Assembly (NCBI GenBank): GCA_036397835.1
Contig: DASWIG010000167.1
Span: forward strand, 1 to 30,942
DNA: 30,942 bases
Direction: 5' to 3'
Origin: Thermoanaerobaculia bacterium
GTDB lineage: Bacteria > Acidobacteriota > Thermoanaerobaculia > Multivoradales > J023
Below, piece by piece: positions 23,556 to 25,499 of this stretch (positions within the stretch are counted from its first letter, which is position 1; every line of letters starts with the position of its first letter). The position numbers and the translations under genes are program-made. The notes beneath the pieces were generated by a model. It was not told where the DNA came from and ran no database searches. It was given only the letters and a program-made list of their open reading frames with translations.

Positions 23556-25499
23556 ATGGCCACGGCCCGCCTCAAGCCCGCCCAACAGCGGACCGCCCTG
23601 CGCGTCCTCGGACGCGACCGCCTCCGCGAGCTCACCGACCACTTCGAGCTCGACGTCGGCGACAAACGCGTGATCGACAACCACGTCGACGCCCTCGTCC
23701 GCAGCCGCGGCGTCGACTTCGCCGACGTGCTCGCCCAGCTCTTCCGCGACGAGCTCAAGGCGATCTGCGAGGCCCTCGGCCTCGACAGCGGCGGACGCGC
23801 CAAGGAGCCCATCATCCAGCGCATCCTCGACGCCGACACGGCGTCCGCTCCCAGGGAAAGAGAGAGCGCAGCCGAGACGCCTGCACCACAACGCCCCAGG
23901 AAGACCTCCGAGACGGCTGCACCGGCTGAGCGCCAGCTCGACGTCTCCGCCCTCGGCGATTGGCTCTGGAAGGCCGCCTGCGAGATCCGCGGCCCCGTCG
24001 ACGCTCCGAAGTTCAAGGACTACATCCTGCCGCTGATCTTCCTGAAACGCCTGTCCGACGTCTTCGACGACGAGGTCGGCCACCTCGCCGCGGACTTCGG
24101 CGACCGCGACACCGCCGCCAAGCTCGTGGAACAGGATCACAAGCTGGTGCGCTTCTACGTCCCCGAGGGCGCCCGCTGGTCACGCATCGCCAAGATCACC
24201 ACGAGTCTCGGCGAGGCCCTCACCGACGCCGTGCGCGCCGTGGCCCGCCAGAATCCCCGGCTCTCGGGCGTCATCGACGTGACCGACTTCAACGCCACCA
24301 CCGCCGGCCAGCGCATCGTCGACGACGCTCGTCTGGTCGCCCTCGTCAAGGTCCTCAACGACAAGGACAAGGGCTATCGCCTCGGTCTCGACGACGTGGA
24401 GCCCGACATCCTCGGCCGTGCCTACGAGTACCTGCTGCGCAAGTTCGCCGAAGGCCAGGGACAGAGCGCCGGCGAGTTCTACACGCCGCGCGAGGTCGGC
24501 GTGCTCATGGCGCGCATCCTCGACCCGCAGCCCGGCATGACCGTCTACGACCCGTGCTGCGGTTCGGGCGGGTTGCTCGTGAAGTGTCACCTGCGCCTCC
24601 TCGATACGAAAGGCGAGAGGACGAACGGACGACTGCGGCTGCCGTCCACGGTGGCCCCGCTCAAGCTCTTCGGTCAGGAGATCAACGCCTCGACCTTCGC
24701 CATGAGCCGCATGAACGCCTTCATCCACGACATGGAGGCCGAGATCGCCCCCGGCGACTCCATGGCCCGTCCGTCGTTCACCGCGGGCGACGGCAGCCTG
24801 CGCGAGTTCGACCTGGTGACCGCCAATCCCATGTGGAACCAGAAGTTCAGCGCCAAGACCTACGAGAACGACGGCTACGGCCGCTTCGGCCGCGGCACGC
24901 CGCCGGCGTCGAGCGCCGATTGGGGCTGGATCCAGCACATGGTCGCCTCGCTTGGGCCGAACGGACGCATGGCCATCGTGCTCGACACCGGAGCCGTCAG
25001 CCGCGGCAGCGGCAACCAGGGGTCGAACAAGGAGCGCGACGTTCGTAAGAAGTTCGTGGACGGCGACCTGGTGGAAGCGGTGCTGCTGCTGCCGGAGAAC
25101 CTCTTCTTCAATACGACCGCGCCGGGGATTGTGATGATCGTCAACCGCAGCAAGCGGCATCCCAAAGAGATCCTGCTCATCAACGCTTCGAAGATGTTCT
25201 CGAAGGGACGGCCGAAGAACTTCCTGGAGGCCGAGCACGTCGAGCGGATCGCTGGGGTCTATCACGGATGGAAGGCGGAGGACGGATTGTCGGCTGTCGT
25301 CGGCGAGGCGGAGGCGGTGAAGAACGACTACAACCTGTCGCCGAGTCGTTATGTGTCTACGGGGGCGGAGGCGGAAGCGCTGCCGCTTGATGAGGCGGTG
25401 GTGCTCTTGGCAGAAGCAGAGGAAGAACGGACCGAGGCGGATCGGCGCTTAGATCAAGTGTTGGTACAGTTGGGATTCGAGGGATGGCGGAATGGCTGA
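23556..25499 (+). CDS. hsdM: Type I restriction-modification N6-adenine DNA methyltransferase subunit with an extra N-terminal domain of about 130 aa
   Basis: The HsdM_N-like segment LWKAACEIRGPVDAPKFKDYILPLIFLKRLSDVF is present. The SAM-binding motif I is VYDPCCGSGGLL and the catalytic motif IV is NPMWNQKF. The 3' end overlaps hsdS by 8 nt. The N-terminal 130 aa precede the usual HsdM start and contain the SAP/HeH-like LAQLFRDELKAICEALGLDSGGRAKEPIIQRIL. Confidence 0.85.
   Translation: MATARLKPAQQRTALRVLGRDRLRELTDHFELDVGDKRVIDNHVDALVRSRGVDFADVLAQLFRDELKAICEALGLDSGGRAKEPIIQRILDADTASAPRERESAAETPAPQRPRKTSETAAPAERQLDVSALGDWLWKAACEIRGPVDAPKFKDYILPLIFLKRLSDVFDDEVGHLAADFGDRDTAAKLVEQDHKLVRFYVPEGARWSRIAKITTSLGEALTDAVRAVARQNPRLSGVIDVTDFNATTAGQRIVDDARLVALVKVLNDKDKGYRLGLDDVEPDILGRAYEYLLRKFAEGQGQSAGEFYTPREVGVLMARILDPQPGMTVYDPCCGSGGLLVKCHLRLLDTKGERTNGRLRLPSTVAPLKLFGQEINASTFAMSRMNAFIHDMEAEIAPGDSMARPSFTAGDGSLREFDLVTANPMWNQKFSAKTYENDGYGRFGRGTPPASSADWGWIQHMVASLGPNGRMAIVLDTGAVSRGSGNQGSNKERDVRKKFVDGDLVEAVLLLPENLFFNTTAPGIVMIVNRSKRHPKEILLINASKMFSKGRPKNFLEAEHVERIAGVYHGWKAEDGLSAVVGEAEAVKNDYNLSPSRYVSTGAEAEALPLDEAVVLLAEAEEERTEADRRLDQVLVQLGFEGWRNG

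Follow-up and report, generated by a model that had tools for sequence, protein, structure and literature searches.

The hsdM gene studied here opens a type I restriction–modification (R-M) operon on contig DASWIG010000167.1 of a Thermoanaerobaculia bacterium (assembly GCA_036397835.1). The 30,942 nucleotides of this contig, read on the forward strand, are referred to as the window in the following. We found that the gene product carries, ahead of the methyltransferase proper, a tandem of two SAP-like helix-extension-helix (HeH) units which is joined to the enzyme by a disordered linker. HsdM and the SAP domain are both known; what is new is a recurrent, so far uncharacterized accessory module of 85 aa, and not a categorically new system. 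Sequence comparisons and structural models suggest that the module is an independently folding, mobile cassette common to many R-M and defence proteins, and this structural and evolutionary description we hold with high confidence. As to its role, we suggest that the module is an auxiliary, sequence-independent DNA tether; to this full mechanism we assign a probability of about 0.55.

The N-terminal extension of HsdM

The hsdM gene and the parts of its extension are as follows.

23556..25499, + strand: hsdM, open reading frame (ORF) of 647 aa (tandem-SAP module, linker, HsdM_N, N6_Mtase)
23565..23834, + strand: 85-position tandem SAP-like module, residues 4–93 (envelope of the hidden Markov model, HMM, of the module)
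23577..23705, + strand: repeat 1, diverged "pseudo-SAP" HeH unit, residues 8–50 (AlphaFold2, AF2, helices 8–29 and 40–49)
23718..23843, + strand: repeat 2, canonical SAP unit, residues 55–96 (helices 55–60, 64–74 and 83–96)
23838..23948, + strand: disordered Pro/Ala/Glu-rich linker, residues 95–131 (predicted local distance difference test, pLDDT, 30–36)

Judged by its domains, its motifs and the adjacent hsdS and hsdR genes, the hsdM product is the M subunit of a type I R-M system. Pfam recognizes HsdM_N (PF12161) at residues 136–265 (E 2.4e-23) and N6_Mtase (PF02384) at residues 283–607 (E 2.7e-87). The S-adenosylmethionine motif I, DPCCGSGG (residues 332–339), and the catalytic motif IV in its variant NPMW (residues 424–427) are invariant in 32 homologues. 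The protein has this core with motifs I and IV in common with the canonical HsdM proteins (7vru, EcoR124I 7bst, EcoKI 2ar0), and the hsdM-hsdS-hsdR operon with overlapping genes is likewise common to both. With 176.3 bits it stays under the cut-off of the NCBIfam equivalog TIGR00497 (242.75), and by its sequence it is a member of a diverged subfamily with 7vru as the nearest solved relative. In contrast to all solved HsdM structures the window protein has about 130 additional N-terminal residues, just as the original prediction had claimed. The recognizable HsdM begins only at about residue 128–136 according to Pfam and PDB: the PADLOC profile MTase_I matches from residue 125 on (1.2e-226), and with the solved structures (7vru, 7bst and others) the alignment does not begin before residue 128–133, with 7vru at 133.

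Such an extension could be an artefact of annotation, the functional HsdM starting downstream without the module. A point in favour of this is a Planctomycetaceae contig (JAWKTZ010000009.1, locus L008), in which the gene orthologous to the window hsdM is an ORF of 653 aa with the module (L008 10001–11962), but the corresponding NCBI protein P0122 is annotated with 554 aa from an internal Met in the linker. Annotation pipelines thus sometimes hide the module, and its frequency is probably underestimated. In addition, the linker of many homologues contains a Met in frame, and dual initiation, yielding a short isoform, is conceivable in these. For the window gene, however, the artefact is essentially excluded. 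When the DNA is read directly, no in-frame ATG, GTG or TTG is present between residues 95 and 140, as had been predicted, so that the fusion is obligatory in this gene. Besides the alignment of the solved fold from residue 128–133 on, the module protein is conserved in frame across homologues which are only 35–45% identical in the module, it is confidently folded by AF2, and the ORF is like the neighbouring genes in its GC content at third codon positions (GC3, 0.88). The start codon is supported by the relatives of the same subtype, whose N-termini align from the same Met, and by a related fragment (L001), with which the homology of the DNA begins 10 nt upstream of the hsdM ATG.

The original prediction had recognized one SAP/HeH motif at the end of the extension. 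The motif is confirmed: residues 65–94 match Pfam SAP (PF02037) with E 1e-4 and 22.2 bits when the isolated N-terminus is searched, 1.7 bits under the cut-off of 23.9, and they also match SAP_new25. Homologous modules pass the Pfam SAP profile with 26–38 bits (P0130, P0199, P0156, P0144, P0226, P0242 and others). The window module scores 105 bits against the module HMM, and on sequence grounds its homology to these modules is unambiguous. The SAP domains of Ku70, PIAS1, Tho1, SAF-A, FAN1 and MKL1 and repeat 2 have in common the helix-extended loop-helix of ∼35 residues, the pattern L..L.v.eLk..c...gl...G.k..Li.RL, the loop glycines and the basic residue after the Gly. In NCBIfam, PADLOC and PHROGs the isolated N-terminus had no match.

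The motif is not single, however, as the residues preceding it (8–50) form a second, diverged SAP-like repeat. This repeat 1 has no Pfam match of its own. From 190 full-length copies of the module the two halves were compared profile to profile by hhalign; the halves match with a probability of 95.3% (E 2.4e-8, 27 columns), aligning iL..L.Rd.Lk.ivd.l.l..DRRs with LL..L...elK.vCe.lGl..GRr. Thus, the halves are homologous, and the unit pairs one diverged SAP-like repeat with one canonical SAP repeat in tandem. The loop of repeat 1 has a conserved D-R/K-R and that of repeat 2 a conserved G-x-x-x-G-R/K; in the AF2 model the stretch GLDSGGRA separates helices 64–74 and 83–96. In this the module differs from the SAP domain as such: its SAP unit is always preceded by the diverged repeat, the evolutionary unit being 85 aa, and its setting is bacterial and defence-associated, whereas SAP domains are set in eukaryotic chromatin proteins.

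The fold was modelled with AF2. For residues 1–100 (17-sequence module alignment) the model has a pLDDT of 81 and contains helices 8–29, 40–49, 55–60, 64–74 and 83–96, with helix-loop-helix units at 8–29/40–49 and 64–74/83–96. Repeat 2 of the model superposes on the SAP domains of 3′hExo, Tho1, Ku70, MKL1 and viral SAP proteins with a root-mean-square deviation of 1.3–2.8 Å, the viral proteins matching at 1.3–1.9 Å and the matches in BFVD being local only. In the full-length model the module reaches a pLDDT of 79–88 but residues 95–131 only 30–36, which argues that the Pro/Ala/Glu-rich linker, correctly foreseen in the original prediction, is a disordered tether. The HsdM core of this model is poor (mean pLDDT 63.6) and the docking of the module on HsdM cannot be judged from it. 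Among homologues the linker varies in length and sequence, whereas the preceding block of ∼85 aa is conserved. Between the window and L001 the ratio of nonsynonymous to synonymous substitutions is 0.42 for the module and 0.79 for the linker, with small counts and with one of the two partners being a remnant.

Distribution and exchange of the module

A word-indexed homologue search with the N-terminus alone yielded only 4 close relatives, and an exhaustive profile search over 1.84 billion representative proteins was needed. In this search the module profile matched 1870 proteins at E ≤ 1e-3 and 609 at E ≤ 1e-10, so the feature is far beyond chance. Most of these matches span all 84 positions and lie at the extreme N-terminus of proteins of 80–1460 aa; eukaryote-like multi-SAP proteins match positions 49–84 of the profile only. 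As identified with Pfam or local HMMs, the partners of the module include HsdM, N6_N4_Mtase, a DEAD helicase, MTaX1 with a GHKL ATPase, a PLD/NgoFVII nuclease, CAP12/Pycsar-type TIR, TIR_2, EH_Signature, an ISAzo13 DDE transposase, an RNase_T exonuclease, DUF488 and the C-terminal domain of HsdR. MORC-like ATPases are among these partners, most of which are enzymes acting on DNA. Several proteins contain two to three modules in tandem, and small stand-alone proteins with the module also occur. A broad alignment of the module contains no conserved 7–10-mer, and a scan of species-representative genomes with a tighter alignment gave only 4 loci.

In the literature on SAP and HeH domains in connection with HsdM, R-M, defence or conflict systems we did not find a SAP-HsdM fusion described, nor did the text of comparative-genomics papers on defence systems mention the 85-aa tandem as a module associated with defence. 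On several homologues the combination PF02037, PF12161 and PF02384 is already shown by automated Pfam annotation. The 85-aa unit could be defined as a family of its own, for example, by a Pfam entry.

How common the extension is among close relatives was surveyed in a set of 121 HsdM proteins, the window protein and its 120 closest homologues. The same extension is present in 15 of the 120 homologues in addition to the window protein, whereas 96 of the 121 proteins have only 8–41 residues ahead of the conserved WLWxAA motif. The claim that the architecture is not the standard one therefore holds inasmuch as most relatives and all solved structures are without the extension, but the architecture is not peculiar to the window HsdM.

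When the proteins of the HsdM clade of the window are clustered by their cores only, the carriers are scattered over about seven groups. In addition, the identities of module and core are discordant: the window protein and P0009 are 35% identical in the module and 80% over the first 45 residues of the core, whereas P0006 and P0271 are 73% identical in the module and 33% over the same stretch of the core. Both observations indicate repeated gain, loss or exchange, and by these comparisons the module has probably been swapped between non-orthologous hsdM genes. The module is borne by at least five sequence types of HsdM_N, and together with the patchy distribution within one HsdM clade (17 of 121 proteins) this suggests a recurrent selection for the fusion of module and HsdM.

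Other N-terminal modules are also found in this clade. P0053, P0066 and P0081 have a different module of ∼100 aa (KWKRGDRVVVHYENDDYYLATV...YDDG) followed by a Lys-rich linker; it looks Tudor/SH3-like by eye and is recognized neither by Pfam nor by PHROGs. The N-terminus of HsdM thus seems to be a favoured site for accessory modules.

Two groups of small module proteins were seen. The protein P0002 (162 aa; L001 8001–8489, also L002 and L003) is a fragment made up of the module with its linker and, after these, ∼15 residues from the start of the HsdM core. Its DNA is 88% identical to window positions 23546–23900 and identical in three samples; its context is unrelated, beside ribBA, and lacks hsdS and hsdR. 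The reading that P0002 is simply what a deletion left behind in a syntenic genome was rejected, as the DNA homology is confined to 23546–23900 and the flanks are unrelated. P0002 is either the orphaned 5′ end of an hsdM gene or a domesticated stand-alone module. The second group is a stand-alone family of 160–172 aa from Planctomycetota/Pirellulales (P0309, P0312, P0297, P0289; L010–L013 6001–6480), in which the tandem-SAP module is followed by a conserved, unannotated C-terminal domain of ∼75 aa (GLxDGSRIKSxKxGWxVVDxxGxxLADPxSATWV...). The neighbourhood of this family is housekeeping-looking.

A putative DNA tether

In the usual view, type I R-M enzymes find their DNA solely by the recognition through HsdS and the translocation by HsdR. 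An additional DNA-binding or docking module on each HsdM would add a further layer to this, be it in target search, DNA retention or localization. We suggest that in the M2S1 or R2M2S1 complex each HsdM carries one module on a flexible tether, and that the disordered linker of ∼35 residues would let each module reach the DNA flanking the site bound by HsdS. There the module would contact duplex DNA independently of its sequence, via the basic residues of the D-R-R and G-R-R loops, which lie where the second helix of each repeat starts. The tether would keep the enzyme on the DNA and raise its local concentration near target sites, and the module may help the enzyme to hold the flanking DNA.

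That the module binds DNA, and thereby affects methylation and restriction, we infer from several observations. The module is homologous to SAP, and its closest structural analogue as a whole is a DNA-binding protein, DEK (see below). The module family has 12 conserved basic columns, among them those of the D-R-R and G-R-R loops, and a mean net charge of +2.5. In the window protein these loop positions are occupied by K37 and R38 and by R81 and K83, respectively. Its partners are mostly DNA enzymes, and the tandem arrays of two to three modules fit an avidity-type DNA binder. The contrast between the pLDDT of the linker (∼30) and of the module (∼85) argues for an independent unit on a tether. 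Weighing against this proposal, the copy in the window is slightly acidic (isoelectric point 6.1) and not basic, and for this reason we hold the full mechanism at lowered confidence.

The best whole-module matches in Foldseek are DEK–nucleosome complexes, with a probability of 0.95 over 95 columns; the match is weak (E 0.2, TM-score 0.45). DEK's pseudo-SAP/SAP domain, which is globular, contacts the dyad DNA and both linker DNAs of the nucleosome (PMC12263440). Between the module and the pseudo-SAP/SAP domain of DEK (PDB 2JX3; 9l1x, 8kd1, 8kcy) no sequence homology is detectable, and the resemblance may be due to a convergent duplication of SAP units.

Alternatively, and as the main rival reading, the module might be a protein–protein adaptor, either a death-like effector-associated domain or a SAP domain which binds proteins, that recruits its carriers to a common partner or into higher-order assemblies. 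We consider this unlikely. An adaptor of the homotypic type should be found in at least two proteins per locus, but six-frame HMM searches of the window and of 15 module-bearing loci (L001–L015, about 8 of them distinct, up to ±10 kb) revealed one copy each even at E ≤ 1, an argument that covers homotypic binding. In addition, the sequence homology is to SAP and not to death-like families, and most partners act on DNA.

It is also conceivable, with a still smaller probability, that the module binds nucleic acids as in the proposed tether but prefers a particular feature, such as AT-rich or bent "foreign-like" DNA, DNA ends or junctions, RNA or single-stranded DNA. Eukaryotic SAP domains bind scaffold/matrix attachment regions, and the N-terminal HeH domain of Rho offers an analogy for RNA or single-stranded DNA. 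However, the N-terminus has no match to Pfam Rho_N (PF07498), an OB fold does not adjoin it as in the Rho N-terminal HeH, and the module profile is nearer to SAP than to the Rho or LEM-HeH domains. The observation on GC content comes from a handful of loci and is uncontrolled, and type I enzymes already obtain their specificity from HsdS.

On a wider view, the recurrence of the module on many unrelated defence enzymes and its swapping between non-orthologous hsdM genes mark it as an accessory part of general use in prokaryotic immune systems. More speculatively, and in our view improbably, the pseudo-SAP/SAP tandem could be a "targeting cassette" of prokaryotic immunity which is shuffled horizontally, has so far gone undescribed and has one shared target feature or hub. 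Such a cassette would direct type I and N6_N4 methylases, MORC-like ATPases, helicases, PLD nucleases, TIR effectors and a transposase alike to a nucleoid or host hub protein or, for instance, to foreign DNA that is AT-rich or bent in a GC-rich host. It would then be the bacterial counterpart of the eukaryotic chromatin-tethering SAP/DEK modules.

The operon and its surroundings

Downstream of hsdM the operon comprises three further genes.

25492..26745, + strand: hsdS, 417 aa (Pfam Methylase_S, two stretches; 8-nt overlap with hsdM)
26738..29659, + strand: hsdR, 973 aa (Pfam HSDR_N, SWI2_SNF2, ResIII and T1R_D3-like; 8-nt overlap with hsdS)
29659..29994, + strand: ORF of a YgjP-like (DUF45) metallopeptidase, 111 aa, HELLH motif (Pfam YgjP-like, 2.8e-23)

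The order is thus hsdM-hsdS-hsdR-YgjP-like ORF, with hsdM first and the YgjP-like ORF last, and the genes are translationally coupled. The GC3 of hsdS (0.62) is far below that of hsdM (0.88) and hsdR (0.92) of the same operon. This points to a source of lower GC content, by acquisition or exchange, for the specificity gene or for its target-recognition domains.

The original prediction had named DUF45 and Rpn as neighbours. The former is indeed present: the YgjP-like ORF matches positions 112–195 of the 207 positions of the Pfam profile, which is the C-terminal half with the HEXXH motif. A counterpart of 107 aa follows hsdR in the locus of P0040 (L004 14550–14873), so that the ORF is a short form which is conserved, rather than a pseudogene that was truncated. 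The Rpn neighbour could not be confirmed, as the ORF 30190..30942 (+ strand, at least 251 aa), which lies downstream of the operon and runs off the end of the window, gave no Pfam or NCBIfam match at the thresholds used.

In other genomes, SAP-hsdM operons have additional defence-like genes as neighbours. In L004 (4787–7158) a caspase/CHAT protease, an ORF of 242 aa and a helix-turn-helix gene lie beside the operon, and hsdS and hsdR are separated by an inserted AlbA_2 gene; in L007 (7614–9983) an N6_Mtase-AlbA_2 fusion is directly upstream of it.

Upstream of hsdM no sigma-70-like promoter was found. About 100 nt before the start of hsdM a GC-rich hairpin with a 12-bp stem, followed by GTCTTGGTTT, is located at 23428–23457 (+ strand), between hsdM and the divergent small ORFs 23152..23403 and 22925..23245 on the minus strand, for which Pfam gave no matches. 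Further upstream, ∼800 bp from hsdM and in the stretch that separates the upstream gene cluster from the R-M operon, positions 22427–22731 are occupied by a tandem array of a 43-bp unit (∼6.5 copies, 76–82% matches; alternative periods 86 and 128), whose units contain short palindromes (GTGCGTTGCAG...CTGCAACGCAC).
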